From: Patescibacteria group bacterium
GTDB taxonomy: Bacteria > Patescibacteriota > Patescibacteriia > JAZDEU01
Reading direction: 5' to 3'
NCBI GenBank assembly: GCA_042568285.1
Contig: JBHPIX010000001.1
Location: forward strand, 539-64,538
DNA length: 64,000 bases
Within the stretch, counting starts at the first letter, position 1. Each line of letters starts with the position of its first letter. Positions 6,561 through 57,130 of this stretch are shown here, piece after piece. The notes below the pieces were generated by a model that worked only from the letters and a program-made list of their open reading frames with translations, did not search any database and was not told where the DNA came from. Both the position numbers and the translations under genes were made by a program.

Positions 6561-6687
6561 TCATTATATAGATTAGTATAACAGTAATATAAAAAAAAAT
6601 ATTTGTCAATATTGCGCTTATTATAAAAAGATTGTAAGGTTATGGGTAATAATATATAGTTCTTATAATTAGAATTTTACCCTTTTT

Positions 6688-6789
6688 GTCATTCCGCGCT
6701 TGACGCGGAATCTAGTGTTAAACTTGATGTTAGATCCCGCCAGTCTCGACTAGCTCGAGCCTAGGCGGACATCAAGTGCGGGATGACAA
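6688..6789. repeat. composite palindromic repeat R-family copy (gtcattccgcgcttgacgcggaat ... tccgcctaggctcgagctagtcgagactggcggg ... gcgggatgaca)
   Basis: same modules recur at 13486, 35552, 51626. Confidence 0.7.
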
Positions 6790-11188: not shown

Positions 11189-11387
11189 GTCTATAAAGTT
11201 CATAAAGTCTATAAAGTCGTAAAGTCTGTAAAGAAAGTATGTTGTCATTCCGCACTTGATGCGGAATCTAGTTGTTTAAAAGTGTATCTTAACTAACTGG
11301 ATCCCGCATAATCGTTGCTACGATTTGCGGGATGACAAAAGGGAAGTGTCAAGCCTCGGCGAGCCGGCGGGTAAGCACGGGATGACA
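11189..11387. repeat. composite repeat: tandem ~10-mers (ctataaagtc x5) followed by R-family palindromes; left inverted copy flanking the peptidase gene
   Basis: reverse complement of block at 12346-12486. Confidence 0.65.
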
Positions 11388-12345: not shown

Positions 12346-12486
12346 TGTCATCCCGCACTTGATGCGGGATCCATTTCTGGATTCCGTGTCAAGCACGGAA
12401 TGACATAAACATATACTATTTCTAATTTCTAAATTTTCGACTTTACAGACTTTACGGACTTTCGACTTTACGACTTTATAGACTAA
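12346..12486. repeat. composite repeat right inverted copy (R-family hairpins + gactttatag tandem 10-mers)
   Basis: inverted partner of 11189-11387. Confidence 0.65.
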
Positions 12487-13431: not shown

Positions 13432-13485
13432 ATTGCTTTTATTTAGTGGAAAGGATATAATTAATTTAATATCATTGTCATCCCG

Positions 13486-13577
13486 CACTTGATGTCCGCC
13501 TAGGCTCGAGCTAGTCGAGACTGGCGGGATCTAACATCAAGTTTAACACTGGATTCCGCGTCAAGCGCGGAATGACA
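13486..13577. repeat. R-family composite palindromic repeat
   Basis: gtcatcccgcacttgatgtccgcctaggctcgagctagtcgagactggcgggat...gcggaatgaca. Confidence 0.7.
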
Positions 13578-16776: not shown

Positions 16777-16840
16777 TGTCATCCCGCGCTTGACGCGGGA
16801 TCCAATAGTGAGTAGATCCCGCATCAAGCGCGGGATGACA
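16777..16840. repeat. R-family double hairpin (tgtcatcccgcgcttgacgcgggat ... atcccgcatcaagcgcgggatgaca)
   Basis: in groES-groEL spacer. Confidence 0.7.
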
Positions 16841-19574: not shown

Positions 19575-19905
19575 ATATATCTTTTTTATTTATAACATCG
19601 TAATAATTTTGTTCTGCTTTTTTAATTTCGGAAAGAGGAGTTTTAGAGGTGTTTTTTAAAAAAGCGTGGAGCAGGATAATATTTTTACCAATAAAGGTAA
19701 AGTAAAAAATTCTATGTCTATTTTTAGAAAAATCAAACGGTTCATCAAGAACACCTTTGTTTATTCGCAAAAAATCAATATATTTTAAAATCTTAGCCTT
19801 TTCTTTATCACGCAAGTTTTCAATATAGTCTAATACTGGGCTATTATAATTCTTTGTGTCTTTATAAAATTTTACTTTATAAGTTACATTGTTATTATAT
19901 ACCAT
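19567..19905 (-). CDS. higB: RelE/ParE-superfamily toxin, HigB / Gp49-like
   Basis: C-terminal IFYFTFIGKNIILLHAFLKNTSKTPLSEIKKAEQNY typical of Gp49/HigB family. Confidence 0.6.
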   Translation of the reverse strand: MVYNNNVTYKVKFYKDTKNYNSPVLDYIENLRDKEKAKILKYIDFLRINKGVLDEPFDFSKNRHRIFYFTFIGKNIILLHAFLKNTSKTPLSEIKKAEQNYYDVINKKDIYE

Positions 19906-19948
19906 ATATGATATATGTCAATAGGGTGATAAAACATGTTGTTCTATA

Positions 19949-20383
19949 TTAACTAAAATTAAATATCCTTTTCCCAATAAACTTTTCTATATACTCTACA
20001 ACCTCTTTTTTAGCTTCAGGCGGGCTGGCCGCTACCCATCGAGCAACATTATAAAGTTCAGTCGTATTAGTTTTTAACCATTTTTTATTTAGAGCTAAAA
20101 AAATTAATAGGGTAGTGACAGCTATTCTTTTATTTCCATTTTGAAATGGATGATTTTTTATTAAAAGATAAAAAAGGATGGCTACTTTGCCACTTAATCC
20201 TTTATATAAAAATTGCTTATTGAATTTTTGAAAAGGAGTTGCAATGCAACTTTCAAGTATGTTTGGCTGTCTAGTATTAAATTCAGGAATAGGCTCATCC
20301 CAACTCATAGTCTGGACAGCAAGTTGATGAGCAATATATTTGATGTGTTCAATTGTTATGTTATTTATTTTATTCATCTCCAA
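19949..20383 (-). CDS. doc: Doc-family toxin (Fic/Doc fold)
   Basis: HPFQNGNKRIAVT matches the Doc variant of the Fic motif HxFx(D/N)GNKR. Confidence 0.75.
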   Translation of the reverse strand: MEMNKINNITIEHIKYIAHQLAVQTMSWDEPIPEFNTRQPNILESCIATPFQKFNKQFLYKGLSGKVAILFYLLIKNHPFQNGNKRIAVTTLLIFLALNKKWLKTNTTELYNVARWVAASPPEAKKEVVEYIEKFIGKRIFNFS

Positions 20384-20666
20384 GCATTTTTAATGTGTCG
20401 CCATATTCTTCAATAACTTTGGCAACACCTTTTTTTATTTCTCCTTTAATTTTGTCAGTCAATTCATTATTCACAAGACCTTTTAACTCATCTCTGTGTA
20501 TGATATAAGCGCGTCCAACTTTTTCAGCCTTAATTTGGCCGTTTTGGATTTTTTTAAACACGGCAATACGGCTGATATTTAAAATATCAGCTAATTCTTT
20601 TACGGTATAATATTTTTTTTTAACGCCAGTATTAGGATTGTTAGCCATATATTTATAGGTTAACAT
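20370..20666 (-). CDS. HTH_17 / excisionase-type DNA-binding protein, putative antitoxin partner of Doc
   Basis: TVKELADILNISRIAVFKKIQNGQIKAEKVGRAYII; 14-nt overlap with doc; likely start at MANNPN. Confidence 0.5.
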   Translation of the reverse strand: MLTYKYMANNPNTGVKKKYYTVKELADILNISRIAVFKKIQNGQIKAEKVGRAYIIHRDELKGLVNNELTDKIKGEIKKGVAKVIEEYGDTLKMLGDE

Positions 20667-23949: not shown

Positions 23950-24157
23950 AGTTTTTTATAATAGCTTAATTTTGGTTATTACTGGCGGAAAATATAAAGC
24001 CCGCCGCCAGCGATGGCTTACACCACCCATATTCCTTTCGGAATATGACCTGCTACAGGTGCTCTGACGACGAGCTTTCTATCCTGTAGCAGGTTTTTTT
24101 GCCATACCTCGCAGATTGACTACGAGGGTTAGGCAATTAAATTGTTAATGGTTTATG

Positions 24158-29239: not shown

Positions 29240-29340
29240 GTTGACCCACACATAAACTAATAACCGAAGGTTTTTGTTTTGTCGCCCCAAATGGGCGGTT
29301 CTGCCGATAAATACTACCTTCGGGAAAGTGTGTTGGGTCA
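29240..29340. promoter_or_regulatory. 100-bp imperfect palindrome (gttgacccacaca ... tgtgttgggtcaac with nested ccgaaggt...accttcgg) directly upstream of the serine recombinase; candidate att / operator site
   Basis: read directly; large serine recombinase att sites are typically int-adjacent imperfect palindromes. Confidence 0.35.
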
Positions 29341-29384
29341 ACCAGAACCGTCCTTTTGAGTTTTTATACAACTCTAACAATATG

Positions 29385-31031
29385 AGACAAAATGACAATA
29401 AAATTAAATACTTCCTTTATGCTCGCAAATCTTCTGAAAGCGAAGACAGACAAATTCAATCTATCAAAGACCAAATTGATCGTTTAAATGATTTGGCGAA
29501 AGATTTGGATTTGGAAATAATAAAAACTTTTACAGAAGCGAAATCGGCTAAACAGCCAAACAATAGACCTATCTTTGACGATATGTTAAGCAGAATTGAA
29601 AAAGGAGATGCTGATGGGATATTGTGCTGGCAAATCAACCGCTTATCAAGAAATCCTGTTGATAGCGGTAAAATAAACTGGTTACTACAACAAGGAACTA
29701 TTAAAGCAATACAAACCATTGATAAACAATATCTCCCAGAAGATAATGTTTTGATGTTTAGCGTGGAAAGCGGAATGGCAAATCAGTTTATTTTGGATTT
29801 AAGAAAAAATACTATAAGAGGCTTGGAGAGCAAAATTCAAAAAGGTTGGTTTCCAAGCAGAGCTCCACAAGGTTATATAAATGATGTGATAGATAAAATT
29901 ATTATCAAAGACCCAGAAAGATTTAATTTAGTAAGAAAAATGTGGGATTTGATGTTGACTGGGAGTTATCAACCGCCCAAAATATTGGACATAGTTACTG
30001 ATGAATGGGGATATTTAACAAGGAAAACAAAAAGAGGCGGAGGCAAACCAATGTCAAAAAGTGAAATTTACAGAATATTTAATGACCCGTTTTATTATGG
30101 CTGTTTTAAATATAAAGACAAAATTTATAAAGGCAAGCATAATCCAATGATAACAGTTGATGAATATGAGAGGGTGCAGGAACTTTTAGGCAGAAAGGAT
30201 AAGCCAAAACAAAAGACCCACGAATTTGCTTTTACTGGGATTATTAGGTGCGGTAATTGCGGATGTTTAGTTACTGCCGAAGAAAAGAAAAAATTTATTA
30301 AAAGCACAAAAGAATATGCGACTTATACTTATTATCGTTGCACCAGAAGAAAAAGGGAAGTTAAATGCAAAGAGCCGACAATAAATTTAGATAATTTGCA
30401 AAATCAGATTATTAATGAAATTGATAAATATACTATTCCCCCAGAGTTTAGGGATTGGGCATTAGAGGTAATAAAAGGAAATAATGAAAAGGAAATAGAA
30501 ACTCGCAATCAAGCTTATGAAATGCTTAATAAAAAATATTTGGATTTACAAAAACAGTTAGATAATTTAACCAAATTGAGATTAAGAGATTTGATTAGTG
30601 ATGAGGAGTTTGTCAAAGAAAGAAAAGAATTGCAAAATCAAGTTATTAAAGTTAGAGAAAAATTAAATCAAAATCAAGATAGAGGGCAAAATTGGGTTGA
30701 TTTAATTGAAAGGGCTTTTAATTTTGCGACTTTGGCAAGAGAGAAATTTATAAACGGCGATTTACAGACTAAAAGAGAAATATTATCGGCATTAGGGCAA
30801 ACTTACACATTAAAGGGAGGTAAATTATACATTGAACCAATAGAATGGTTAGCTCCCATTTCTAACCTTGCTAAAATTGAACAAGATGAGGTTGTGAGGT
30901 TAGAACCAGCTAATTTTCGCTTAAATAAAGCAAAAAACAGGGCTTTAAACCCTGTAATTGCGAATTGGGGTGATAGATGGGATTTGAACCCACGACTTCC
31001 AGTACCACAAACTGGCGCTCTAACCAACTGA
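29385..31031 (+). CDS. large serine recombinase (resolvase/invertase catalytic domain + recombinase domain + zinc ribbon + coiled coil)
   Basis: YFLYARKSS catalytic Ser context, ...RLSRN, CGNCGC...CTRRK zinc ribbon; ORF has no stop until 31031, so the last ~22 codons are antisense to tRNA-His. Confidence 0.8.
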   Translation, partial: RQNDNKIKYFLYARKSSESEDRQIQSIKDQIDRLNDLAKDLDLEIIKTFTEAKSAKQPNNRPIFDDMLSRIEKGDADGILCWQINRLSRNPVDSGKINWLLQQGTIKAIQTIDKQYLPEDNVLMFSVESGMANQFILDLRKNTIRGLESKIQKGWFPSRAPQGYINDVIDKIIIKDPERFNLVRKMWDLMLTGSYQPPKILDIVTDEWGYLTRKTKRGGGKPMSKSEIYRIFNDPFYYGCFKYKDKIYKGKHNPMITVDEYERVQELLGRKDKPKQKTHEFAFTGIIRCGNCGCLVTAEEKKKFIKSTKEYATYTYYRCTRRKREVKCKEPTINLDNLQNQIINEIDKYTIPPEFRDWALEVIKGNNEKEIETRNQAYEMLNKKYLDLQKQLDNLTKLRLRDLISDEEFVKERKELQNQVIKVREKLNQNQDRGQNWVDLIERAFNFATLAREKFINGDLQTKREILSALGQTYTLKGGKLYIEPIEWLAPISNLAKIEQDEVVRLEPANFRLNKAKNRALNPVIANWGDRWDLNPRLPVPQTGALTN

Positions 31032-31043
31032 GCTACTATCACC
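30966..31043 (-). tRNA. tRNA-His (GTG) with extra 5' G and encoded CCA
   Basis: cloverleaf read by eye: GGTGATAG acceptor, anticodon loop TTGTGGT, T-arm GTGGGTTCAAATCCCAT. Confidence 0.8.
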
Positions 31044-31159: not shown

Positions 31160-31323
31160 TATGGAATCGCCCGCTAATACAGCGGGCGCTCGCCGTGGTG
31201 GCGAGCGAACCCCCATAACCAGCTTAGAAGGTTTGCCTCTCCGTAGCTTTAGCGTAGGCGGGTTGGTGTTCTATCCTCCTTCGCTAAAGCTACGGCGGAC
31301 AAAGTCCGTTGAACTACGAGCGC
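31160..31323 (-). pseudogene. degenerate tRNA-Arg(TCT)-like sequence with three insertions (D-loop, anticodon stem, T-loop); 3' acceptor strand missing
   Basis: blocks GTAGTTCAACGGA, GGATAGAACACCA, CCTTCTAAGCTGGTTATGGGGGTTCG align to tRNA-Arg; inserts at 31236-31266 and 31281-31308 are mutually complementary over 14 nt. Confidence 0.45.
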
Positions 31324-34216: not shown

Positions 34217-34837
34217 ATGGCAATTGAAAGAGCTTTAATAAGCGTATCAGATAAAACAGGAATAGTGAAATTTGCAAAAGAGCTGATAGAGTTGACTGGA
34301 TGTGACATTATTTCAACAGGAGGGACAGCTGAAATTTTACTGGAGGATGGTATTCCAATAATTCCAATTAAAAATGTTTAAGGCAATCCAGAATCTTTTG
34401 GCGGAAGAATGAAAACTATTAGTTTTGAAGTTGAATCCGCTATTTTGTATAGACGCAACAATGAAATGGATGTTTCAGACGCTGATGCGTTAGGCATTAT
34501 GCCAATTGATATAGTTATATGCAATCTATATCCTTTTGAAAGAACTATCGCGCGTCCAGATTGCACATTTGAACAGGCAATTGAAAATATTGATATTGGC
34601 GGACCGACAATGTTGCGCGCCGCAGCTAAAAATTATCAGGATGTGGTTGTTGTTATAGATCCTTATGATTATTATACTATAATAAAAGAGTTGAGAGACC
34701 GAAAGGGAAGTATTTCCATTGAAACCAGAGAACAGTTAATGCTAAAAGTGTTTGCGCGAACAAAAAATTATGATACTGCGATTTATAATTATTTAAACCA
34801 ACAATATTTAAACCAAGAATTAGGGAATGCTTATTGA
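34217..34837 (+). pseudogene. purH: PurH N-terminal (IMP cyclohydrolase / MGS-like) domain gene interrupted by in-frame TAA at about 34379-34381
   Basis: [12 protein letters not shown]...STGGTA and GRMKTISFEV...IDIVICNLYPF...NIDIGGPTMLRAAAKN align across the stop to E. coli PurH residues 1-200. Confidence 0.5.
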
Positions 34838-34985: not shown

Positions 34986-35020
34986 TAATAAATCCTGTGG
35001 CATAATTTTTTTCTGCTACT

Positions 35021-35095
35021 GGATCCCGTGTCAATCCCGCCGAATCGGCCTGCCTGCCGGTAGGCAAGGCAAGCACGGGATGACAATCCGTGTCC
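35021..35095. repeat. R-family repeat (ggatcccgtgtcaatcccgccgaatcggcctgcctgccggtaggcaaggcaagcacgggatgaca)
   Basis: same module as 43490-43556. Confidence 0.65.
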
Positions 35096-35114: not shown

Positions 35115-38100
35115 CTATCCGTCTTGAGCCCGTCTTTTCCAAACCAAGACTCCCAGCACGACAGCTAAAATCCCAACCGCTATAGATAAAACCCACTGTA
35201 ATATTTTTTTTATGCCGATAGCGCGATCAGCGTCTTTTTGTAAATTTTCTATTGTTTGCGCCAGTTTTATTTCAGGCACTTCCTCAACTGTTTCTTGCTC
35301 AGAAATTTCATCTACATTTAAAGAAATTTCAATATCCTCTTCGCCTTCCAAATCTACGCCGATAACTTCTGTCTCCCATTCGCCGTCTTCGGGATCTTCA
35401 ACAACCACAATTGCTCCCATGCCGTCCTGCATGGGCTCGCCTGAATATTTTTTTCCAGACGGACTTATTAAAGCAAACTCAATAACTGGTTTGTCTTCAG
35501 CCATCGCTGGCGAGATATTCCAGAGCCTATCAGACTCTCTAAAGTGCTTTTTGTCATTCCGCGCTTGATGTCCGCCTAGGCTCGACTCCGCCTCGGATCG
35601 CCGAGTGCGAGACGGGATAGTCGAGACTGGCGGAATCCAGTTAGTTAATCTGGATTGCAAAATTTCTGGATCCCGCGTCAAGCGCGGGATGACATTCCCA
35701 GAATACTCTGATAGTAACGCGGACCCAAACCTCATAACCCCAGTTAAAATTTGCCTGCCCCCGCTTCTAACCGCCTCCGCTGTTTGGCGCGCAGTTTCTT
35801 CTACTCTCTCACCAGTTTCAATAATGGTTTTAGCGGCTTCTTCCGCTATATTTTCAGCTGTTTCAACAGCTTGCTCTGTTTTTTCCTGAATTGCGTCCCG
35901 CATCGCTTCGCCAGTTTGACTTGTCGCCTGTACTACAAATTTTTTTGTTTTCTTAACTCCTCTAACGAGAGTGGTCTTTGTTGTATTTGCTACTTGCCTA
36001 AAAATATTCACCATTTCATTGGATATTCTATCAGCTTCTCTTGTAAATTCATAAGCTAAATTACCTCCTTTTACAATAGCATTATCAATAGAAGCTCCCA
36101 ACGGTCTCATTGACTGATAAACTGATTCCAGATCAATAATCTCTTGGGTTCCCGGAATACGGATTACTGAATGGCAATCACCGATAGTGGCTTCGCACCA
36201 ATCACTCGCGGTATTATGATAAATTGCGAACATCTTTCCTTCTGAATATATACCGAAAATCGCCTTGCCATAAAGTCCAGCGATATTAATGCCGTCAGTC
36301 GCTAATTTTAATTTGTCATTAATATCTCTGGCGAAATCGCTAACTTTTTCAAAAACATCGCCAAAAATAGTTTCCTTGCCTAATAAACTGGCGCCCCAAT
36401 CTACTGCCGCGCCAGCTAATCCAAGCTGATCCATTAGCTTGCCAAAATTTGTGGTAGTATCAATTAATTGGTTGCCCATATTTTTGCTTTTATCAAAAAT
36501 ATTGTCATTATTGTAAACAAAATTTTTCTCTGCTATTAATGCTTCTCTGATTTGATTAATTTTTGTTTGATATCCATAATAAGGAACATCGCTATTTGGC
36601 ACAGCTCCAACAAATTTATTTTGATGCCATATAGCAACTTGATAATCAACCATTTGGTTAGAAACAGCTTCTTTAAAATTCGTCATAAAAGCTAATTTAT
36701 ATAAATTTTTATATTTATGTTTTACAGTCTTTTCTAATTCATCCATATAGCGCTTCAAACTTCCCTGCGAGTTTTCAAACGCCCTGTCAGCTTCCATTTT
36801 AAAATCCGCGATTTGCGCGGAACTTTCTATTCCCAAACTATTCAATACAGATTCCAAACTATGTCCTTCCAACTGTCCTCCTACTAATTCAGTAGCGGCA
36901 GTTAATTTATCCGCGACACCTCTTAAATTTACATTAAGTTTTCCTGACAAGCTATTTAATCTTTGGTGCGCGACAATCTTCGCTTTAAACAATAAGAACG
37001 TTCTCATCAACTGCCATGTCGCTTCTCCAAGAACATCCGCCATTTCTGTTCCTGCCTCAATAGTCGCAACTCCTAATTTTTCTATGGCAATAGAACTTTT
37101 TAATAAAGCGATTGCTTTTACTTTATTGCCCCCGTCCTTTTCTTCTTCTACGGAAATCATTAAGGTTCTATGCATATCATGCGGGCTAAAATTACCTTCC
37201 AGTCCAGGCACATATTTTTTATCATTTAATGGCATTATACTTCCATAAATATTGCTATACTCATTAATATATTCAATTACATTTTCTTCCATCGCGCATT
37301 TTTTTTCCCAGCAAAAATCAGACTTGCATTGCGAACTTTCAGAACATGCGTCGCCATTATTAAACAATAAACATTCTCTTCTTGTTGTGGCGCAGTCAGG
37401 ACATGAACAATCTTCATTATCCTGGCATTCTCCATCACCGCACCAAGTGTATCCTAGGGGTCTGCATACAGACTCTACGCAATTATTTGATGCGCAGTCT
37501 TGTTGCTCGTCACAACTTTGTCCGTTTTCTTTTTTAACTTCTTCTTCCTCTCGCTCTTCTGCACCTTCTTCCACTTTTAATTCATCTTCTACTCCATTCT
37601 CATCGTTCCCCTCTTGAGAGGGGTCAGGGGTGTGTTCTGTTTCAGCAGAAACACTTACCCTTAATTTTACACCTATAGCTTCAATTGTAGTGTAATGATA
37701 GAATTTAACTGTATTAGATCCAGCTTGAAAAAACTTTGTGGCGTCAATCCATTTATTTAAACCGCTTGCTTCTGTCACATTTTTTCCAAGCGAAGCATCA
37801 TAAACTTGTCCGTTTGACGATGAATATGGAGAAAATTCCCAAACTGTTTTATCATTCACTTTTACATATCCATTTTTTCCCATATATTTTTTAACATAGT
37901 TAGAACTGTTCTTAGCATAATGGGTAATTTCTACTTTGGTAAACCGGCTCGGAAGATTAACTGTCCATATATGAGGCGCGCGCGAAGCTGGAATAACTCC
38001 TCCGTCTTTCATTTCTCCACTTGATCCAAATGACATAGAATTTATTGCTGTAAATTCATCATCCTCGCACTGTCCGCAATCTTTTACGCAATCAACGCAT

Positions 38101-40034
38101 GTTTCTCCGCTATCGCAAAATGTGTCTCCACAATATGTTTCAGAGCTTCTGCATTTACTGTGAACACAATGGTTATTTTTGCATTCTGAATTAGCTCCGC
38201 ATGTTTCTCCAGTATCTTTCAATGAACATGCTCCACAATCAGAAGTACAGCTTGAACAAGACTCTCCTCTATCGCAAAATGTATCGCCGCAATATGTTTC
38301 AGAGCTTCTGCATTTGCCATGAACACAATGCCAATTTTTACATTCCCCGCTATTAACGCAATCAGAACCGTCTGGCTTACTGCATAATCCGCAATCATCA
38401 GAACAATCATCGCATGTTTCACCTGTATCGCAGTTACTGTCTCCGCAGTATGTTGAAGAGCTTCTGCATTTTCCGTGAACACAATAATTGTTCGCGCATT
38501 CTGAATTAGCGTTGCATACAGCTCCATCAATTTTTAATGAACATGACCCGCAGTCGGAAGTACAGCTTGAACAAGATTCGTCGCTATCGCAAAATGTATC
38601 CCCGCAATATGTAGAATTTTCGCGACATATATTATGAACACAATAATAATCCCCGCAATCAATCTGCGAAAGGCATTGCTCTCCTATTCCAGCTCGGCAG
38701 TTTCCGCAGTCCTGCTGGCACACATCGCACTCTTCGCCATTGTCGCAATGACCGTCTCCGCAGTATGGGGATGAAGATCTGCACCTGCTATGCAAACAAT
38801 ATGGACTTTCGCACTCTGAATTGTTTGAGCAAACCTCGCCGTCTGCTTTTAAATTTAATTCGCAATAATAATTAGAAGTATCGCATAAATAACCGCTATC
38901 GCAATGATCATTTATTGAGCAACATGTTTTGCCAGCTTCGCAACATACATAATTTGCGCAATTTTCTGATTTGCAAGTTGAAGATGCATAGCAGACTTCT
39001 CCAATTTCTTTTCTTGTATCCACTTTTTCAACGCAATATTTATTATAATGGCATTCATATCCAGTTGAACAATCATCATCGTCATAACAGCACGTTCCAG
39101 AATCACAACATTTTCCATTGTTGCAGTATCCACTAGCGCATTCTTCTGAAGATGCGCAGACAGAACCATTTACTTTTAAGTATGTATACTCGCATAAATA
39201 ATTTGAATTGCATAAACCATTATTGCCACAATCATTATCAGTTTCGCAACACCATCCAACGCCTCCGCAGCATATTTTTTTTGAATAATCGCTTCCAAGC
39301 ACATAATCACAAATACTTGATTCGCATTCGCTATATTGAGAGCAAGCTTCGCCATTTGCCTTTTTAACTTTATCTTCGCAATAATAATTATCATTGCAAA
39401 TAGTATTCAATCCAAAAAGATCTCCGCAGTCGTTGCTTGTCTTGCAACATTCTTTGCCAGCTTCGCAACAAGTTCTATGCTGGCAATTATCTGATACGCA
39501 GTCTGTGTTAGAGCTACAACTCCCGCCATTCGCGGTCGTAGCGTCTGATTCGCAATAGCATCCGCCGGATTCGCCATATAGGGTGCAAGTAGCCGCGTAT
39601 GGACAATGGTCATTATTGAAACAGCATACGCTTCCCGTTTTACAGCATATATTATTACTGCAATTTCCTGATTCACATTCTGCGTCTTCGCCTGAATCGC
39701 ATGTCATAGAATTTATTACACTGCCGGCGCAATCTTCTGGACAAATGGTATATCCTTCATCGCAATAGCCGTCTCCGCAAAAATAATAATGATCTCTGCA
39801 AATATTATGGATGCAATAATCCGCATCGCAGTCCCATGATGTTGTACAGCTTTCACCCAGAGCGTTCGTCGCAAAAGAAACATTCGCGAACAGCGACATT
39901 GCGAATATTGCAAAAACAAAAACAGCGATAAACTTTAATGAACTAAAAGTACAATCGCTGTTTGCAGATAACTGTTTTACGAAATGCCACAATTTTTCGT
40001 AAAATGTTTGTGGCGTTTTGATAGAGTGTTTCAT
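35115..40034 (-). CDS. giant (1639 aa) Cys-rich modular surface protein with N-terminal signal/TM and C-terminal TM anchor
   Basis: dozens of ~45-aa Cys-rich repeats (GxxCxxxxxCxSxxC...CC), a second repeat class (YCGDxxCDxGExCxxCxxDCGxC), ~700-aa helical region, C-terminal hydrophobic helix. Confidence 0.6.
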   Translation of the reverse strand: MKHSIKTPQTFYEKLWHFVKQLSANSDCTFSSLKFIAVFVFAIFAMSLFANVSFATNALGESCTTSWDCDADYCIHNICRDHYYFCGDGYCDEGYTICPEDCAGSVINSMTCDSGEDAECESGNCSNNICCKTGSVCCFNNDHCPYAATCTLYGESGGCYCESDATTANGGSCSSNTDCVSDNCQHRTCCEAGKECCKTSNDCGDLFGLNTICNDNYYCEDKVKKANGEACSQYSECESSICDYVLGSDYSKKICCGGVGWCCETDNDCGNNGLCNSNYLCEYTYLKVNGSVCASSEECASGYCNNGKCCDSGTCCYDDDDCSTGYECHYNKYCVEKVDTRKEIGEVCYASSTCKSENCANYVCCEAGKTCCSINDHCDSGYLCDTSNYYCELNLKADGEVCSNNSECESPYCLHSRCRSSSPYCGDGHCDNGEECDVCQQDCGNCRAGIGEQCLSQIDCGDYYCVHNICRENSTYCGDTFCDSDESCSSCTSDCGSCSLKIDGAVCNANSECANNYCVHGKCRSSSTYCGDSNCDTGETCDDCSDDCGLCSKPDGSDCVNSGECKNWHCVHGKCRSSETYCGDTFCDRGESCSSCTSDCGACSLKDTGETCGANSECKNNHCVHSKCRSSETYCGDTFCDSGETCVDCVKDCGQCEDDEFTAINSMSFGSSGEMKDGGVIPASRAPHIWTVNLPSRFTKVEITHYAKNSSNYVKKYMGKNGYVKVNDKTVWEFSPYSSSNGQVYDASLGKNVTEASGLNKWIDATKFFQAGSNTVKFYHYTTIEAIGVKLRVSVSAETEHTPDPSQEGNDENGVEDELKVEEGAEEREEEEVKKENGQSCDEQQDCASNNCVESVCRPLGYTWCGDGECQDNEDCSCPDCATTRRECLLFNNGDACSESSQCKSDFCWEKKCAMEENVIEYINEYSNIYGSIMPLNDKKYVPGLEGNFSPHDMHRTLMISVEEEKDGGNKVKAIALLKSSIAIEKLGVATIEAGTEMADVLGEATWQLMRTFLLFKAKIVAHQRLNSLSGKLNVNLRGVADKLTAATELVGGQLEGHSLESVLNSLGIESSAQIADFKMEADRAFENSQGSLKRYMDELEKTVKHKYKNLYKLAFMTNFKEAVSNQMVDYQVAIWHQNKFVGAVPNSDVPYYGYQTKINQIREALIAEKNFVYNNDNIFDKSKNMGNQLIDTTTNFGKLMDQLGLAGAAVDWGASLLGKETIFGDVFEKVSDFARDINDKLKLATDGINIAGLYGKAIFGIYSEGKMFAIYHNTASDWCEATIGDCHSVIRIPGTQEIIDLESVYQSMRPLGASIDNAIVKGGNLAYEFTREADRISNEMVNIFRQVANTTKTTLVRGVKKTKKFVVQATSQTGEAMRDAIQEKTEQAVETAENIAEEAAKTIIETGERVEETARQTAEAVRSGGRQILTGVMRFGSALLSEYSGNVIPRLTRDPEILQSRLTNWIPPVSTIPSRTRRSEAESSLGGHQARNDKKHFRESDRLWNISPAMAEDKPVIEFALISPSGKKYSGEPMQDGMGAIVVVEDPEDGEWETEVIGVDLEGEEDIEISLNVDEISEQETVEEVPEIKLAQTIENLQKDADRAIGIKKILQWVLSIAVGILAVVLGVLVWKRRAQDG
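35552..35694. repeat. R-family composite repeat inserted in-frame inside the giant protein CDS
   Basis: translated as VIPRLTRDPE...NWIPPVSTIPSRTRRSEAESSLGGHQ, the same peptide as in the MiaB-like gene. Confidence 0.8.
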
Positions 40035-41565: not shown

Positions 41566-41605
41566 ATTGACGCGGTGTTGTCATCCCGCACTTGATGCGG
41601 GATCC
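41566..41605. repeat. R-family single hairpin (tgtcatcccgcacttgatgcgggat)
   Basis: read directly. Confidence 0.65.
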
Positions 41606-41609
41606 ATTC

Positions 41610-43112: not shown

Positions 43113-43186
43113 TTTTTTCTCCTTCTTTTAAATTATTTGGATTAACAACGTTTATAACGTTGCCTCTGATTTTTTCAAAGAGCTAT

Positions 43187-43250
43187 GTGCCGGGAAGAGG
43201 ATTCTTGCCCTGTCGTATGACAGGGTGAACCTCCACGCTCATTCGCACTA
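43187..43250 (-). pseudogene. 3' fragment of tRNA-Leu duplicated immediately 3' of the intact gene, carrying a 26-nt hairpin insertion in the T-loop
   Basis: tgtgccgggaagagga[ttcttgccctgtcgtatgacagggtg]aacctccacgc matches the tRNA-Leu 3' end. Confidence 0.5.
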
Positions 43251-43269
43251 CAAAAACGAAATTCCTATG

Positions 43270-43351
43270 TGCCGGGAAGAGGACTTGAACCTCCACGCCC
43301 GAAGGCACGTGCTCCTAAGGCACGCGTGTCTGCCAATTTCACCATCCCGGC
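43270..43351 (-). tRNA. tRNA-Leu (TAG) with long variable arm
   Basis: GCCGGGATGGTGAAATTGG..., anticodon loop CTTAGGA, variable arm GTGCCTTCGGGCGTGGA, T-arm GGTTCAAGTCC. Confidence 0.8.
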
Positions 43352-43401: not shown

Positions 43402-43556
43402 TTGTCATCCCGCAAATCGTAGCAACGATTATGTCCGCTTCGGCTTGAATCGAGACGAGCGGGATCCACTTTTAAATCAAATTTCTGAATCCCGTGTCAA
43501 GCCCGCCGAATTGGCCTGCCTGCCGGTAGGCAAGGCGAGGCAAGCACGGGATGACA
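43402..43556. repeat. R-family composite repeat (three modules)
   Basis: gtcatcccgcaaatcgtagcaacgattatg..., ...cgtgtcaagcccgccgaattggcctgcctgccggtaggcaaggcgaggcaagcacgggatgaca. Confidence 0.7.
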
Positions 43557-44643: not shown

Positions 44644-46422
44644 ATGAAAAATAAAAATGAAAAATTAGAGCTATTAAGACACTCTTTATCTCACATTCTT
44701 ATGCAAGCGCTCACTAGGTTATATGGAGCTATTCCTGGTGTAGGACCAGCTATTGAAAATGGTTTTTATCATGATATAGATGCGGAATACCAAATTACAG
44801 CTGAAGACATCCCAAAAATAGAAAAGGAGATGAAAAAAATCATAAAAGCAAATTATCCTATTGAAAAAAAAGTTATGCCCATTGATGAAGGTATAAAATT
44901 TTTAAAAGAAAAAGGATATATCTATACTGCTGAACTGGCGGAAGATTTAAAAAAAGAAGGCAAAGCAGAAATTACATTTTATCAACAAGCGGAATTTATC
45001 AATATGTGCAAAGGACCTCATTTAGAAGCTACTGGAAAAATAAATCCAGACGGTTTTAAACTTACAAAACTTGCTGGCGCTTACTGGAAAGGGGATGAAA
45101 AAAATAAAATGATACAGAGACTTTATGGAGTAGCTTTTGAAACAAAAGATGAATTGGAGAAATATTTGAAGATGATGGAAGAAGCTGAAAAGAGAGATCA
45201 TAGGAAAATCGGATCTGAATTAGATTTATTTAGCTTTTCCAGAGGATCGGCAGGACTACCGGGAAGCGTGTATTGGCACCCAAAAGGGACTATTATATAT
45301 CAAGAAATTATTAGTTATATAAGGGAAAAATTAAAAAAATTTAATTATGGCGAAATTAGAACTCCCATGATTTTAAATAGGGAACTTTGGAAAAAAAGCG
45401 GACATTGGGAAAAATATAAAGAAAATATGTTTTTTGCGGCAGATACTTCCGATATAGAAGATATAAGAAAAGGAAAAAGTCCTGTTTGGGGAATAAAGCC
45501 AATGAACTGCCCTGGAGCAATAGCTGGAATATATAATGCTAAAAAAAGATCATATAAAGAATTTCCTTTGCGAATTGCTGAATTTGGAATGGTGTATCGT
45601 AATGAAGAAAAAGGGGTAATTCACGGACTTTTTAGAGCAAGAGCTTTTACGCAAGATGACGCTCATATTTTTTGCACCGAGGATCAATTAATTTCTGAAA
45701 TAGAAGCTTTAATAGATATTGTTCTTTCAACTTATAAAGATTTTGGTTTTGACGATATTAATACAGAACTTTCTACAAGACCTAAAAAGTATATTGGGAG
45801 TTTAAAAACTTGGGATAAAGCAGAAAAAATTCTTGAAGCTTCTTTAAAGAATACAAAATTAAAATTTGTAATAAATGAAGGTGACGGCGCTTTTTATGGA
45901 CCTAAAATAGATTTTCACATAAAAGATGCTTTAAACAGATCATGGCAATTAGGAACTATTCAATTAGATTTTTCCATGCCTGAAAAACTTGATGCCAAAT
46001 TTACTGATAAAGATGGGAAAGAAAAAGCGCCAATAATGTTGCATAGAGCAGTTTTGGGTTCGTTGGAAAGATTTATAGGCATACTTGTAGAACACTACGG
46101 CGGAGCCTTCCCTCTATGGTTATCACCTGTTCAAGTGAAAATAATTTCAGTTGGTGAAGGGCATATTGAATTCTGCAACAAGCTGGCAGATGAATTTAAA
46201 GAACAAAATGTAAGAGTAGAAGTTGATTCAAATGACGAAACAGTTGGGAATAAAATTAGAAAAGCCAGAACAGAAAAAATTCCTTATGTTTTAGTAATCG
46301 GCGATAAAGAAATGAACTCTGACAAACTGCATATCAATGTAAGAGGAAAAAAAGAAATCATTGAAATGACAAAAAATAATTTTTTTGGTAAAATAAAGGA
46401 AGAGATTGGAGAACGGGTATAA
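44644..46422 (+). CDS. thrS: threonyl-tRNA synthetase (lacking N-terminal TGS domain)
   Basis: class II motifs, HRAVLGSLERFIGILVEHYGGAFPLWLSPVQV, anticodon-binding C-terminus. Confidence 0.9.
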   Translation: MKNKNEKLELLRHSLSHILMQALTRLYGAIPGVGPAIENGFYHDIDAEYQITAEDIPKIEKEMKKIIKANYPIEKKVMPIDEGIKFLKEKGYIYTAELAEDLKKEGKAEITFYQQAEFINMCKGPHLEATGKINPDGFKLTKLAGAYWKGDEKNKMIQRLYGVAFETKDELEKYLKMMEEAEKRDHRKIGSELDLFSFSRGSAGLPGSVYWHPKGTIIYQEIISYIREKLKKFNYGEIRTPMILNRELWKKSGHWEKYKENMFFAADTSDIEDIRKGKSPVWGIKPMNCPGAIAGIYNAKKRSYKEFPLRIAEFGMVYRNEEKGVIHGLFRARAFTQDDAHIFCTEDQLISEIEALIDIVLSTYKDFGFDDINTELSTRPKKYIGSLKTWDKAEKILEASLKNTKLKFVINEGDGAFYGPKIDFHIKDALNRSWQLGTIQLDFSMPEKLDAKFTDKDGKEKAPIMLHRAVLGSLERFIGILVEHYGGAFPLWLSPVQVKIISVGEGHIEFCNKLADEFKEQNVRVEVDSNDETVGNKIRKARTEKIPYVLVIGDKEMNSDKLHINVRGKKEIIEMTKNNFFGKIKEEIGERV

Positions 46423-46459: not shown

Positions 46460-46753
46460 ATGATTACTCAAATTTTTAAAAAGAAAATAACTCCCGTATT
46501 AAAACGGCAAGGGGTAACCAAAGCTGCCATTTTTGGTTCTTTCGCAAGAGGAGATTGTAAAAAAAATAGCGATATTGACATTTTAGTAAGTTTAGAAAAA
46601 GATAAAACATTGCTTGACCTTATAGGATTAAAAATTGAATTGGAAAATAAGCTTAAAAGAAAAGTTGATGTTTTAACATATAATGGAATTAACCCTCGTT
46701 TAAAGGATATAATTTTAAATGAACAAAAAATAATTTATGAAAAAAGATCTTAA
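46460..46753 (+). CDS. MNT-type nucleotidyltransferase antitoxin
   Basis: IFGSFARGDCKKNSDIDILV GS...D.D motif. Confidence 0.75.
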   Translation: MITQIFKKKITPVLKRQGVTKAAIFGSFARGDCKKNSDIDILVSLEKDKTLLDLIGLKIELENKLKRKVDVLTYNGINPRLKDIILNEQKIIYEKRS

Positions 46754-47075
46754 TATTTTCATAGAACATATCTTGGAAAGCATTACTGAAATTGAAAAAT
46801 ACACAAAAAATATTTCTTGTGCCAAATTTTTAAAAACCACACAAATTCAAGACGCGGTTATTAGAAGATTAGAAATCATAGGAGAGGCGGTAAAAAATTT
46901 ACCACTTTCTTTAAAAAAACAATCTCCATATATACCATGGCAAAAAATTGCTGGATTAAGAGATGTCCTAATTCATGAATATTTCGGAGTTGATATAGAC
47001 TTAGTTTGGAAAATTATAAAGAAAGATCTGCCAAAATTCAAAAAGGAAATTATAGAATTGACAAAATTAATATAA
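46737..47075 (+). CDS. HepT/DUF86 toxin
   Basis: overlaps MNT gene by 17 nt; DUF86 R-x4-HxY-like region RDVLIHEYF. Confidence 0.7.
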   Translation: MKKDLNIFIEHILESITEIEKYTKNISCAKFLKTTQIQDAVIRRLEIIGEAVKNLPLSLKKQSPYIPWQKIAGLRDVLIHEYFGVDIDLVWKIIKKDLPKFKKEIIELTKLI

Positions 47076-49751: not shown

Positions 49752-49813
49752 TGTCATCCCGCGCTTGACGCGGGATCCATGAATTTAGATCCCGCGTCAA
49801 GCGCGGGATGACA
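49752..49813. repeat. R-family double hairpin abutting the stop codon of the preceding gene
   Basis: tgtcatcccgcgcttgacgcgggatcc...gatcccgcgtcaagcgcgggatgaca. Confidence 0.7.
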
Positions 49814-51281: not shown

Positions 51282-52787
51282 ATGCAAAATTATTATATAA
51301 CTACATACGGATGCCAGATGAATAAAAGCGACAGCGAACGAATTGCAACTGTTTTAGAAAATGTTGGATATAAAGTATGTTCAAAAGAAGAAGATGCTGA
51401 TTTAATAGTGGTAGTTTCCTGCTCTGTTAGACAAACTGCTGTTGATAGAATTTACGGAAGGGGAGTAAAGTATAAAAAATTAGAAAAGGAAAATCCTAAT
51501 TTGAAAACAATTTTAACTGGATGTCTTTTAGATGAAGACAAGAAAAAATTAGCAGATAAGTTTGATGTGATCTGTGATATAAGAGAGATAGAAAAAATAT
51601 CAGACTTAATAAAATGCAAGAAAATTGTCATCCCGCGCTTGACGCGGGATCCAGAATTTACTAAATTTTGTTTAAATAACTGGATTCCGCCAGTCTCGAC
51701 TATCCCGTCTCGCACTCGGCGATCCGAGGCGGAGTCGAGCCTAGGCGGACATCAAGTGCCGTGCCTACCCTGCCTACCGGACAGGCAGGCGGCAGGCAGG
51801 CGGAATGACAAAAAGGTGATTGATTGCGTTTTTAGACAGTCTGAACCGATCGATTCCATACATAACAAGAAAAAATTAGATTACTCATACCTCTCAATTC
51901 CACCAAAACACTCCTCGCTATTCAAGGCATACATTCCAATAATGACAGGATGTAATAATTTTTGCTCATACTGCGTTGTTCCATATACAAGAGGTAGAGA
52001 ATACTCGCGTCCCGCTGATGAAATTTTAAACGAAGCGCGCCAGTTAATCCAAAATGGCTACAAAGAAATCACGCTAATCGGGCAGAATGTTAATAGTTAT
52101 AATGGAAAAATAAACTTCCCATCCCTCCTTCGCGAAATAAATTTTATCCCGGGAGATTTTTGGATTAGATTTGCCACAAGTCATCCAAAAGATATGAGTG
52201 ACGAACTGATAACCACTATATCAGAATGTGAAAAAATAACTCCATACATACATTTGCCAATTCAATCTGGAAGCGATAAAATTCTTAAAGCAATGAATCG
52301 TAAATATACAAAAAATCATTATCTAAATTTAATAAAAAAAATAAAGTCTAAAATTCCTAATGTAATGCTATCAACAGATATTATAGTAGGATTTCCTAAT
52401 GAGACAGAAGCAGATTTTAATGAAACTGTTGATGTATTTAAAAAAGTGAAATATTCTATGGCATATATTGCTAAATATTCTACTCGTAAAGGTACTGTCG
52501 CTGGCTCTTTAGCGGACAATGTTACGCAAGAAGAAAAAGCTAGGCGAGAAAATGTTTTAACTGACATTTTAAAACAAACTGCTTTAGAAAATAATAAAAA
52601 ATTTATAGGTAAAACTGTAAAAGTGTTAATTGAAAAAAAATTTGGGAATTACTATATTGGAAAAACTGATCAATTTATAAATGTAAAAGTAGATCTATCT
52701 GAAAGGCGAGATGCGCAAGTATCATCTGTCGTATTCATAAACTGCAAAATTATGAAAGTTGCTTCATTTGGCATGGAAGCGAAGTAA
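51282..52787 (+). CDS. MiaB/RimO-family radical-SAM methylthiotransferase carrying a ~60-aa repeat-encoded insertion
   Basis: N-terminal MTTase YGCQMN, radical-SAM CNNFCSYC, TRAM-like C-terminus; insertion between MTTase and radical-SAM domains. Confidence 0.8.
   Translation: MQNYYITTYGCQMNKSDSERIATVLENVGYKVCSKEEDADLIVVVSCSVRQTAVDRIYGRGVKYKKLEKENPNLKTILTGCLLDEDKKKLADKFDVICDIREIEKISDLIKCKKIVIPRLTRDPEFTKFCLNNWIPPVSTIPSRTRRSEAESSLGGHQVPCLPCLPDRQAAGRRNDKKVIDCVFRQSEPIDSIHNKKKLDYSYLSIPPKHSSLFKAYIPIMTGCNNFCSYCVVPYTRGREYSRPADEILNEARQLIQNGYKEITLIGQNVNSYNGKINFPSLLREINFIPGDFWIRFATSHPKDMSDELITTISECEKITPYIHLPIQSGSDKILKAMNRKYTKNHYLNLIKKIKSKIPNVMLSTDIIVGFPNETEADFNETVDVFKKVKYSMAYIAKYSTRKGTVAGSLADNVTQEEKARRENVLTDILKQTALENNKKFIGKTVKVLIEKKFGNYYIGKTDQFINVKVDLSERRDAQVSSVVFINCKIMKVASFGMEAK
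51626..51810. repeat. R-family composite repeat inserted in-frame in the MiaB-like CDS
   Basis: encodes VIPRLTRDPE..NWIPPVSTIPSRTRRSEAESSLGGHQ.. identical to the segment in the giant protein. Confidence 0.8.
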
Positions 52788-53268: not shown

Positions 53269-53393
53269 AGAATTAAATTTATTTAATTAAATCTATAATA
53301 TTATAAGTATAGCAGAAAAGTGATTTATAGGCAATACATTATATTATTTGATGTTATATTTTTTTTATGATAAAGTATATTGTATATATTGAT

Positions 53394-53420
53394 TAGATCC
53401 CGCATCAAGTGCGGGATGAC
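53394..53420. repeat. R-family hairpin (agatcccgcatcaagtgcgggatgaca) overlapping the 5' end of the activase ORF
   Basis: translates as SRIKCGMTY in track ORF. Confidence 0.65.
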
Positions 53421-53436
53421 ATACCTATTTATGCAA

Positions 53437-54237
53437 ATTGCGGGACTGCAAAAAATTAGTTTGCTGGATTATCCAGATAAAATATCTTCGGTTGTTTTTA
53501 CGCAAGGATGTAATTTTATATGTCCGTTTTGCCATAATCCAGAACTTACTGGAATGAGGGGGAGTTCATTGAATGCATCGCATAACCCCCCCTTAATCCC
53601 CCCCTTACTAAGGGGGGGAGCGGAGAAGTTAATCTCCCCATTGGTAAGTGGGGAAGCTGATCATTTATATATAAATGAAAAAGATTTTTTCAAGCATTTA
53701 GATGAGAGAAAAGGTTTTATAGATGGAGTATGTATAACTGGAGGTGAGCCTTTGATGCAAAAAGATATTGCTGATTTTATAAAAAAAGTTAAAGAAAGGG
53801 GATTGTTAGTTAAGTTGGACACTAATGGATCTTATCCAGATAAGTTGCGAAATTTAATAAAACAAAAAATATTGGATTATATAGCAATGGACATAAAAAA
53901 TACATTTTCTAATAAATATAGCGAAGCATCTGGCGTTAATGTTGATTTAAATCAAATTAAAAAAAGTATAAAATTAATAATGGATAGTGGTTTAGGTTAT
54001 GAATTTAGGACAACAGTAGTTAAAGAATTGCATAAAAAAGAAAATATTTTGGAAATAGCTGAATATATAAATGGCGCGCGAAAATATGTCTTGCAAAAAT
54101 TTGAAATTAGAGATAAAATAATGGATAGGAGCTTTATTAATTATTCAAGTATAACAACAGAGGAGGCATTAGAGTTAAAAAAGGAATGTAGTCAATTTGT
54201 TGAAAAAGTTGAACTTAGGGGATGGGGGGAGTCTTAA
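53437..54237 (+). CDS. nrdG: radical-SAM activating enzyme (anaerobic RNR activase NrdG-like)
   Basis: LLDYPDKISSVVFTQGCNFICPFCHNPE radical-SAM CxxxCxxC; likely start MQIAGLQK (track ORF 53380 starts inside a repeat). Confidence 0.6.
   Translation: MAGLQKISLLDYPDKISSVVFTQGCNFICPFCHNPELTGMRGSSLNASHNPPLIPPLLRGGAEKLISPLVSGEADHLYINEKDFFKHLDERKGFIDGVCITGGEPLMQKDIADFIKKVKERGLLVKLDTNGSYPDKLRNLIKQKILDYIAMDIKNTFSNKYSEASGVNVDLNQIKKSIKLIMDSGLGYEFRTTVVKELHKKENILEIAEYINGARKYVLQKFEIRDKIMDRSFINYSSITTEEALELKKECSQFVEKVELRGWGES
53571..53660. repeat. GC-rich hairpin element embedded in-frame in the activase CDS
   Basis: cataacccccccttaatccccccc-ttactaa-gggggggag translated as HNPPLIPPLLRGGAEK. Confidence 0.6.
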
Positions 54238-57017: not shown

Positions 57018-57130
57018 TGTCATCCCGCAAATTGTAGCAACAATTATGCGGGATCTATATAGGAAAATTATAGCAATTAGAAAGGAGCTTCTTATTGAAA
57101 ATTAGATCCCGCATCAAGTGCGGGATGACA
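57018..57130. repeat. R-family composite repeat
   Basis: gtcatcccgcaaattgtagcaacaattatgcgggat ... agatcccgcatcaagtgcgggatgaca. Confidence 0.7.

Follow-up and report, generated by a model that had tools for sequence, protein, structure and literature searches.

Hairpin repeats of a known class lie in frame within two unrelated genes of a Patescibacteria group bacterium and resemble Rickettsia palindromic elements in behavior

Within a 64,000-nucleotide stretch of the genome of a Patescibacteria group bacterium (contig JBHPIX010000001.1 of GenBank assembly GCA_042568285.1; the whole stretch is called the window here), the same composite palindromic element occupies two unrelated genes on opposite strands. 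One is the gene for a MiaB/RimO-family methylthiotransferase (element at 51626-51810) and the other that for a large Cys-rich surface protein (element at 35552-35694). This pairing had been predicted from the sequence, and the predicted coordinates proved to be exact: the arms of the two copies agree at 29/29 and 79/80 positions, and the reading frame is kept through both. Judged by its sequence, the element belongs to a known repeat class, the hairpins of the NTS and Ssn-related motif (SRM) type, which is newly seen here in the Candidate Phyla Radiation (CPR) and in coding DNA, and its behavior is similar to that of the Rickettsia palindromic elements (RPE). We found no report in the open-access literature of this repeat class in CPR bacteria or of its in-frame coding copies.

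The two coding copies share their hairpin modules and the peptide that these encode

The window is AT-rich (32% GC), and the 185-nt element in the MiaB gene has a GC content of 58%. A repeat search showed that no inverted repeat in the window is longer than the one that the two coding copies form (134 nt, 92% identity), and this match is far above chance. Folded as RNA, the MiaB-gene element reaches -86.4 kcal/mol (z = -6.06 versus shuffles) and the surface-protein element -71.6 kcal/mol (z = -6.26 versus shuffles).

In both host genes, the first base of the element is codon position 3. The insert product is VIPRLTRDPEFTKFCLNNWIPPVSTIPSRTRRSEAESSLGGHQVPCLPCLPDRQAAGRRNDKK in MiaB and VIPRLTRDPEILQSRLTNWIPPVSTIPSRTRRSEAESSLGGHQARNDKK in the surface protein, with isoelectric points of 9.9 and 11.3, so that both peptides are basic; NWIPPVSTIPSR is an example of a predicted peptide derived from the insert. 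The original prediction was that the two genes encode an identical peptide. This holds over the codons of the hairpin modules, which give VIPRLTRDPE, NWIPPVSTIPSRTRRSEAESSLGGHQ and RNDKK in both proteins, but not over the spacer, where eight encoded residues differ.

Both segments are insertions into variable linkers

The open reading frame (ORF) of the methylthiotransferase is intact and retains all of its invariant cluster cysteines (C47, C81, C224, C228 and C231). Pfam places UPF0004 at residues 4-96 and Radical_SAM at residues 218-384 of its 501 residues, and the insert lies between these methylthiotransferase (MTTase) and radical-SAM domains, as had been proposed. An alignment with the solved MiaB of B. 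uniformis (7mjv) leads to the same placement: both domains align, and the interdomain linker measures 122 aa versus 53 aa in the solved protein. The segment is absent from all 19 of the closest MiaB homologues (51-74% identity), and the alignment gap opens exactly at the insert, in a stretch between UPF0004 and Radical_SAM that varies in length. In an AlphaFold2 model built on the alignment of MiaB homologues, residues 114-200 have a predicted local distance difference test (pLDDT) score below 50, while both domains and the C-terminal beta domain score around 90. The model thus predicts that the insert is disordered and falls in the low-confidence linker between two confidently modeled domains.

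For the surface protein, a search of its C terminus among 5.8 billion proteins gave a single word-indexed match, which was the MiaB protein of the same genome, hit through the repeat peptide. An exhaustive HMMER search retrieved four homologues with 34-43% identity, all without the 49 residues and with conserved blocks on both sides of the site. The insert is flanked by a conserved helical region and by the C-terminal domain (PVIEFALISPSG...), likewise conserved, which precedes the membrane anchor. Since homologues of both hosts lack the segment (19/19 for MiaB and 4/4 for the surface protein), it is not ancestral protein sequence, and both segments are insertions into variable linkers.

The surface-protein gene contains further repeats. 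Approximately five diverged tandem units of 156-159 nt at 38104-38816 (-) encode Cys-rich modules of the form CVHxKCRSSxTYCGDxxCD. Another GC palindrome family (ACACACCCCT.ACCCCTCT...AGAGGGG) is present in frame at 37595-37639 (-), where it is read as HTPDPSQEGN, and has intergenic copies at 438, 16901, 16955 and 54560. Between the SMC gene and the surface-protein gene, positions 34409-34837 (+) encode only a 142-aa fragment of purH (MGS and the start of AICARFT), probably a gene remnant.

A single open frame dictates how the element is read

In each coding copy, six-frame translation showed that only one frame of six is free of stops. The copies have the same frame and the same peptide because no other frame is open, and not because one is preferred; any copy surviving in an intact gene must take that orientation, that frame and that peptide. 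A preferred frame, which had been put forward for testing, was therefore rejected, all the more since readings of this hairpin in other genomes cover at least four frame/orientation combinations (CHPALDAGS, VIPHLMRDPE, GSRIKCGMT and IPHQVRDD), which shows that whichever frame is open is used.

Open frames are not a general property of these repeats. Across the nine intergenic elements tabulated for this purpose, 11/54 frames are open and four of the nine elements have no open frame at all; the four include both 102-nt composites bearing the S1 module (see below), to which the coding copies are most closely related. If translation took place only after removal of the element, the two copies would both lie in their sole open frame with a probability of ∼1/36, which is modest evidence for translation. 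We infer that the inserts are translated as basic, disordered loops.

The window contains a family of nested hairpin elements

About 13 elements bounded by TGTCATYCCGC and GCGGRATGACA were found in the 64 kb, made up of 23 half-sites of the TGTCATYCCGC type (Table 1). Eleven of the elements are intergenic. Each arm (TGTCATCCCGCG...ATCCAG) consists of a GC stem between the oriented flanks GTCAT and ATCCAG. The basic unit is formed by two inverted arms separated by an AT-rich spacer of ∼6-25 nt and is 60-64 nt long, and composites with hairpins in their loops extend to 95-185 nt.

The nested hairpins form modules of their own. S1 (30 nt; CCGCCAGTCTCGACTA...TCGAGCCTAGGCGGAC) is found in the elements at 6687 and 13476, and S1 with S2 nested in it (60 nt) in both coding copies. 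When the copies are oriented by their AAAAG tail, S1 keeps a constant position relative to its arm, but this arm is the left one in the two intergenic elements and the right one in both coding copies, which indicates that loop insertion occurs independently at a preferred position. No match to S1 was found in a metagenome scan, and this module thus seems to be confined to this lineage. At the gathering threshold, Rfam assigned no family to the elements, and a literature search with literal sequence strings returned only chance matches to primers.

Table 1. Positions of the palindromic elements, their modules and the two host genes in the window
Feature	Position	Strand	Remarks
MiaB/RimO-family methylthiotransferase gene	51282..52787	+	501 aa, intact, all cluster cysteines conserved
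Composite palindromic element in MiaB/RimO gene	51626..51810	+	185 nt; read as residues 116-178
Left arm, canonical SRM/NTS-type hairpin TGTCATCCCGCGCTTGACGCGGGATCCAG	51626..51654	+	Encodes VIPRLTRDPE; strict match to published SRM search string
AT-rich spacer between arms, MiaB copy	51655..51679	+	15/25 bases shared with spacer of other copy
Right arm, inverted SRM hairpin CTGGATTCCGC...ATCAAGTGC...GGAATGACA	51680..51810	+	Nested GC hairpins in loop
Nested S1+S2, right-arm loop of MiaB copy	51691-51750	+	60 nt
Nested S3, right-arm loop of MiaB copy	51760-51801	+	42-nt GC hairpin; S3 lacking in surface-protein copy
Gene for Cys-rich surface protein with C-terminal membrane anchor	35115..40034	-	1639 aa
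Second composite copy, in surface-protein gene	35552..35694	-	143 nt; read as residues 1448-1496
Left arm of surface-protein copy, canonical SRM hairpin	35666..35694	-	29/29 identical to 51626-51654
Right arm of surface-protein copy, nested S1+S2	35552..35640	-	79/80 bases versus MiaB copy
Simple SRM doublet, intergenic	49752..49813	+	62 nt; same doublet at orthologous site in relative L118
Simple SRM doublet, intergenic	12346..12405	+	60 nt
Simple SRM doublet, intergenic	16777..16840	+	64 nt
Doublet with S1 nested in one arm, intergenic	6687..6788	-	102 nt; no stop-free frame
Doublet with S1 nested in one arm, intergenic	13476..13577	+	102 nt; 97% identical to 6687-6788; no stop-free frame
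Doublet, second arm with loop extension (ATAATCGTTGCTACGATT), intergenic	11243..11337	+	95 nt
Composite, loop-extended arms and S1-like nested module, intergenic	43403..43556	-	154 nt
Doublet with one loop-extended arm, intergenic	57018..57130	+	113 nt
Single loop-extended hairpin, CCCGTG/CACGGG stem, intergenic	35019..35085	+	Just past 3' end of surface-protein gene
Solo SRM hairpin, intergenic	41579..41607	+	
Solo inverted SRM hairpin	53394..53421	+	Just upstream of probable start of radical-SAM activase gene

The arms are of the SRM/NTS class

Chenal et al. (2025; PMC11893778) defined NTS (CGTCATTCCCGCGMAVGCGGGAATCYRG) and the degenerate SRM, and described Ssn, small proteins of the GIY-YIG type (cd10448) that cut single-stranded DNA (ssDNA) next to such hairpins and whose genes typically have these hairpins on their flanks. 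In their account, the identity of the loop is dispensable and its extension possible, transformation in Neisseria is modulated by NTS in combination with SsnA, and Rickettsia is listed among the SRM-rich genomes. The published search string, HGTCWYN(0-2)YYVSBRHN(0-5)WNVSBRGN(0-2)RNCYNB, has six strict matches in the window, the left arms of both coding copies among them, versus 0.04 expected from 100 dinucleotide shuffles.

The elements of the window share with SRM and NTS the (H)GTCAT flank, the GC stem-loop and the ATCYRG flank, and they likewise occur in multiple, mostly intergenic copies that form mosaics with AT-rich spacers. They differ from NTS in the stem-loop (CCCGCG-CTTGA-CGCGGG versus TCCCGCG-MAV-CGCGGGA) and from the published SRM in their inverted doublets and nested loop hairpins. 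From this motif agreement we assign the arm to the SRM/NTS class. The element had been thought to be uncharacterized in this lineage, and indeed no description from Patescibacteria was found; its core, however, is not specific to the lineage, the arms being hairpins of the class published in 2025. While that paper covers neither Patescibacteria nor intragenic copies, both are seen here.

The wide distribution of the arm is consistent with this assignment. In species-representative genomes, a 27-nt arm pattern (TGTCATYCCGCRCTTGAYGCGGRATCC) is matched exactly >117 times, across many phyla that include Planctomycetota, Nitrospirota, Bacteroidota (among them cultured Flavobacteriaceae), Coxiellaceae, Chloroflexota, several CPR lineages and one archaeal metagenome-assembled genome (MAG). 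The same arm matches six stretches in viral contigs, and the inverted arm matches 114 metagenome stretches. Elsewhere, the usual unit is TGTCATTCC-hairpin-GGAATCCAG followed after 10-20 nt by CTGGATTCC-hairpin-GGAATGACA, commonly with a total length of ∼60-120 nt. In other phyla, the arm is commonly paired with one that matches dRS3 of Neisseria gonorrhoeae at 100%. The arms of the window are of the ATCCCGCG-N5-CGCGGGAT or ATTCCGCG type and not of the 20-bp form ATTCCC-N8-GGGAAT that defines dRS3 in Neisseria, where it flanks RS spacers in arrays (Bentley et al. 2007; PMC1797815).

Putative small Ssn-like GIY-YIG ORFs lie directly beside the same hairpin in at least six of the loci from other genomes (L049, L072, L141, L151, L166 and L196), and two more loci (L105 and L148) have an Ssn-like ORF elsewhere in the locus. 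The ORF of L049 shares 48% identity with a single N. gonorrhoeae locus, which has 13 NTS copies on its flanks.

In some loci we observed tandem arrays of a 20- to 28-nt unit that corresponds to the 5' half of the SRM hairpin; these arrays end in one complete hairpin and lie between ordinary genes (L024 780-1140 and L052 4886-4975; also L005, L018 and L036). They suggest replication slippage or template switching at the hairpin. An interpretation as binding sites of transposon ends was dropped, since the arrays are found between ordinary metabolic genes without any transposase.

In-frame palindromes recur in a relative and in other genomes

A syntenic region of a related genome (JGI; locus L118) has the gene order ThrRS - DUF5667 - 189 aa - MiaB (P0002) - ORF6N - SMC. 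After the DUF5667 gene it carries the orthologous doublet, with nearly identical arms, a spacer that is 21 nt longer and diverged flanks. The MiaB linker of L118 contains a palindrome of a different GC family (PLSPSSKEGEPCSLPFKGKVGVG), so that this linker appears to be a permissive site that has been used repeatedly. The threonyl-tRNA synthetase (ThrRS) of L118 has a 28-aa palindrome-encoded insert (ILSPPLNPPLSKGGSEKASS..., L118 2727-2789) between fully conserved flanks, and the ThrRS of the window (44644..46422) is without it, a difference between a filled and an empty orthologue. The same family as in the L118 ThrRS, a third one (CCCCCCCTTAATCCCCCCCTTACTAAGGGGGGGAGC), lies in frame in a radical-SAM activase-like gene of the window (53574-53641 (+), ORF 53380..54237) and encodes the peptide NPPLIPPLLRGGAEKLISPLVSGEADH. 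No PDB match for this activase, sought to place its insert, was found. The inserts in the MiaB and ThrRS of L118 and in the activase of the window indicate that linkers have been colonized in frame repeatedly in this lineage, by several families of repeats.

Two further observations concern gene order in this region. In L118, an MNT/HEPN-type pair (NTP_transf_2/Polbeta and HEPN) lies on the opposite strand between the 189-aa gene and miaB, and ORF6N adjoins SMC with no surface-protein gene in between. In the window, a HicB-like gene is located between the ThrRS and DUF5667 genes.

SRM-class hairpins are also read in frame outside this lineage. The annotated ileS of Sphingopyxis indica pMC4 (L127) contains a complete in-frame SRM doublet (RHPRESGDPERASANPTLDSRFRGNDK), the MiaA of a Moraniibacteriota MAG (L064) has such a doublet at a loop whose counterpart in solved MiaA is shorter, and in a Saccharibacteria MAG (L100) an SRM doublet lies in frame in a membrane protein. 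Of 123 metagenome matches, 7 were inside long ORFs, in several different frames; the in-frame loci include L134, L156, L192, L210 and L235. The hosts, identified only by eye, look like a nucleotide kinase, a prepilin peptidase and MutS2, along with membrane proteins.

Proposed origin of the coding copies and alternatives

We consider it probable that SRM-class hairpins, nested into a composite, insert passively into unstructured linkers, are limited by a filter for the open frame, and are translated there as loops. An inverted-SRM doublet would have been scattered through the AT-rich genome, and insertion of further GC hairpins (S1, S2 and S3) into the arm loops would have produced larger composites. 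Two copies of one such composite would have entered coding DNA, with most other copies being intergenic. The coding copies would persist because they are read in the sole stop-free frame, because their net length keeps the host frame, and because the host site is a variable, unstructured linker: in MiaB the linker between the MTTase and radical-SAM domains, in the surface protein the stretch ahead of its C-terminal domain. Passive translation would then yield basic, disordered loops of 63 and 49 aa. Spread and maintenance may depend on an Ssn-type ssDNA nuclease or another trans-acting enzyme encoded elsewhere in the genome, and loop insertions may be tolerated because the identity of the loop is dispensable for Ssn recognition. 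Spread through Ssn is the leading candidate and spread through a classical transposase the chief alternative; a contribution from gene conversion between copies is probable.

Several findings weigh against this account. At 185 and 143 nt, each coding copy has a length of the form 3n+2, which requires that 1 or 4 extra bases be assumed, for instance the conserved AAAA tail; adding the AAAA that follows ATGACA in most copies gives 189 and 147 nt. The data at hand contain no empty site for either coding insertion, by which its ends and a target duplication could be fixed. The arms of the coding copies are ∼99% identical and their spacers 60%, a pattern better accounted for by gene conversion or by selection acting on the hairpins than by a simple recent transposition of the whole unit. 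No GIY-YIG or ssn gene was detected in the 64-kb window with Pfam or with a hidden Markov model made from 10 Ssn-like ORFs (E <= 1e-3), and a Pfam search of 55 candidate ORFs revealed no DDE, Y1, RAYT or transposase gene there. To our knowledge, Ssn nucleases have been shown only to cut ssDNA, and we know of no strand-transfer or copying activity. Because the 64-kb window yielded no mobilizing enzyme, an Ssn link for this organism is suggested by analogy, through class membership. The only recombinase of the window, a large serine recombinase encoded next to tRNA genes, is unlikely to be relevant.

The elements might instead be classical MITEs (miniature transposable elements with inverted repeats), that is, deletion derivatives of an insertion sequence (IS) mobilized by a DDE transposase acting in trans on TGTCAT...ATGACA terminal inverted repeats (TIRs), with an incidental likeness to SRM. 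The TG...CA ends, the perfect 29-nt TIRs, the size of 60-185 nt, the lack of own coding capacity and the many dispersed copies would all suit a MITE, and in-frame fusions are known for MITEs (PMC10969869, PMC5896051). We nevertheless think this unlikely. No target-site duplication is visible at 10 window copies or in other phyla, and an AAAA(G) recurs on one side of the elements; no transposase was found in the 64-kb window; no longer element with the same ends was seen in ∼240 loci; and the half-hairpin arrays lie among ordinary genes. Moreover, the presumed TIR is a complete oriented SRM hairpin that is also found solo (at 41579 and 53394) and beside Ssn-like genes.

The hairpins could also be kept for a role at the DNA level, for instance if cleavage there by Ssn limited recombination or transformation across these genes, or for a useful peptide. 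The arms are conserved at ∼99-100% while spacers and flanks drift, both in the coding pair and in the orthologous intergenic copies of the two species. NTS and SsnA modulate transformation in Neisseria (PMC11893778), and the window encodes ComEC. The same pattern of conservation is, however, predicted by gene conversion among copies or by repeated insertion at hot spots, no Ssn gene is known for this genome and there are only two coding copies, which makes such a role improbable. The near-invariant arms and drifting spacers are also the basis for supposing that hairpins are selected even inside genes, which is part of a broader proposal that we regard as doubtful: SRM/NTS hairpins would be the common agent of coding palindromes in many bacteria, RPE-like insertions included, would have grown in CPR bacteria by loop nesting, and would be selected as DNA hairpins also where they lie in essential genes, for instance by serving as a checkpoint for ssDNA entering organisms that depend on DNA uptake.

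That the host genes are pseudogenes or crippled, with the open frame a recent accident, appears quite unlikely. The 1639-aa ORF is missing from one gene-call collection, and MAGs of this group do carry gene fragments such as the purH piece described above (34409..34837). Yet neither ORF is truncated, no invariant catalytic residue is missing from MiaB, whose two domains are both modeled with confidence, and an intact 1639-aa product (P0121) is present in a larger protein library. In addition, both copies are in the sole stop-free frame, which has a probability of ∼1/36 if orientation and frame are unconstrained, and other housekeeping genes have similar inserts.

It is very unlikely that the element remains untranslated, either removed in the manner of an intron or bypassed by the ribosome as in the mitochondrial 'byp' of Magnusiomyces or T4 gene 60. 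Fungal mitochondrial GC clusters, double-hairpin elements and 'byp' are GC-rich palindromes that invade AT-rich genomes, including coding genes, and nest in one another. The very stable RNA fold and the GC-rich hairpin in an AT-rich genome, by general knowledge a trait of mitochondrial bypass elements, would agree with this alternative. Fungal mobile GC clusters are organellar, though, and byp breaks the frame and gets bypassed, whereas in the Patescibacteria copies the frame stays open. Neither an intron nor any other Rfam family was detected on the elements, and the peptide has no Pfam match. Removal would also free frame and orientation, yet all in-frame copies, here and elsewhere, are stop-free in the frame of the host. 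Finally, a native low-complexity linker that resembles the repeats by chance or convergence, for which one could cite only that both sites are variable linkers, is refuted by the 29/29 and 79/80 DNA identity across unrelated genes and to intergenic modules, by the absence of the segment from all homologues, and by the surface-protein C terminus matching only MiaB of the same genome.

Relation to known palindromic elements and implications

As described in PMC10969869, RPE-1 to RPE-10 (Ogata et al. 2000/2002) are palindromes of ∼100-150 bp in an AT-rich, reduced genome that lie in frame in unrelated housekeeping genes, encode a conserved peptide and occupy sites tolerated by the fold. The behavior ascribed to the Patescibacteria element by the original prediction was RPE-like, and this was borne out with respect to in-frame placement, unrelated host genes, conserved peptide and linker sites. 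It did not extend to a sequence relationship: compared at the peptide level, the inserts match no NCBIfam or Pfam model at E <= 10. The host phylum and the nested modular architecture are further differences from RPE.

With repetitive extragenic palindromic (REP) sequences, bacterial interspersed mosaic elements and REPINs the elements have in common that they are short, non-autonomous GC hairpins, single or in inverted doublets that fold into a long hairpin. Both REP/REPIN and the Ssn repeats are presumed to depend on one domesticated enzyme that recognizes ssDNA hairpins (PMC11893778). REP superfamilies are defined by GTAG and CGTC tags (PMC3733652); in contrast, the arms of the window start with TGTCAT and have no such tag, no Y1_Tnp (RAYT) domain was found in the window, and REPs are extragenic by definition. 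The ORF-fusing MITEs QMITE1/2 of Coxiella (PMC5896051) are similarly small, with inverted-repeat ends, structured transcripts and occasional in-frame basic peptides, and ERIC, Nezha and the Anabaena MITEs are further examples (PMC10969869). For the elements, no target-site duplication or parent IS was found in the window and in the loci inspected, and their ends are autonomous hairpin motifs found across phyla, in contrast to the lineage-specific TIRs of MITEs.

The coding copies join the 25-year-old puzzle of the in-frame palindromes of RPE with the 2025 finding that site-specific ssDNA nucleases (Ssn) target a widespread class of hairpin repeats. The hairpin class reaches into Patescibacteria, where it builds nested composites, and it is apparently harmless inside essential genes (miaB, miaA, ileS and possibly others). 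It would explain many odd peptide stretches of the VIPRLTRDPE, WIPAFAGMT and LDSRFRGND types in proteins predicted from metagenomes, and stretches of these types should be taken as repeat-derived and not as features of domains. It may also offer a testable route by which proteins of reduced genomes gain new disordered loops.

Other features of the window

A copy resembling tRNA-Arg(TCT) lies beside the true tRNA-Arg at 31160-31323 (-) and is conserved in both species (L118 14684-14852). It has three GC-rich insertions, in the D-loop, the anticodon stem and the T-loop region, and is called by neither ARAGORN nor Rfam; a permissive Rfam scan of the region gave only meaningless microRNA matches. 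Possible identities are a pseudogene and a structured RNA of an unusual kind. The intact tRNA-Leu (43269-43351) has, at a distance of 18 nt, a duplicate of its 3' part (43186-43250 (-)), into whose T-loop a 24-nt hairpin is inserted.

The large serine recombinase ORF (29274-31031 (+)) runs into the tRNA-His gene (30966-31042 (-)) and may mark the edge of an integrated element. Toxin-antitoxin-like pairs are encoded in 19269-20666 and 46460-47075 (HTH/Gp49, Fic/HTH and nucleotidyltransferase/HepT). A LOOT RNA (Rfam RF03000) is present at 24012-24135 (-), with a score of 97.5 bits that is well above the gathering score.

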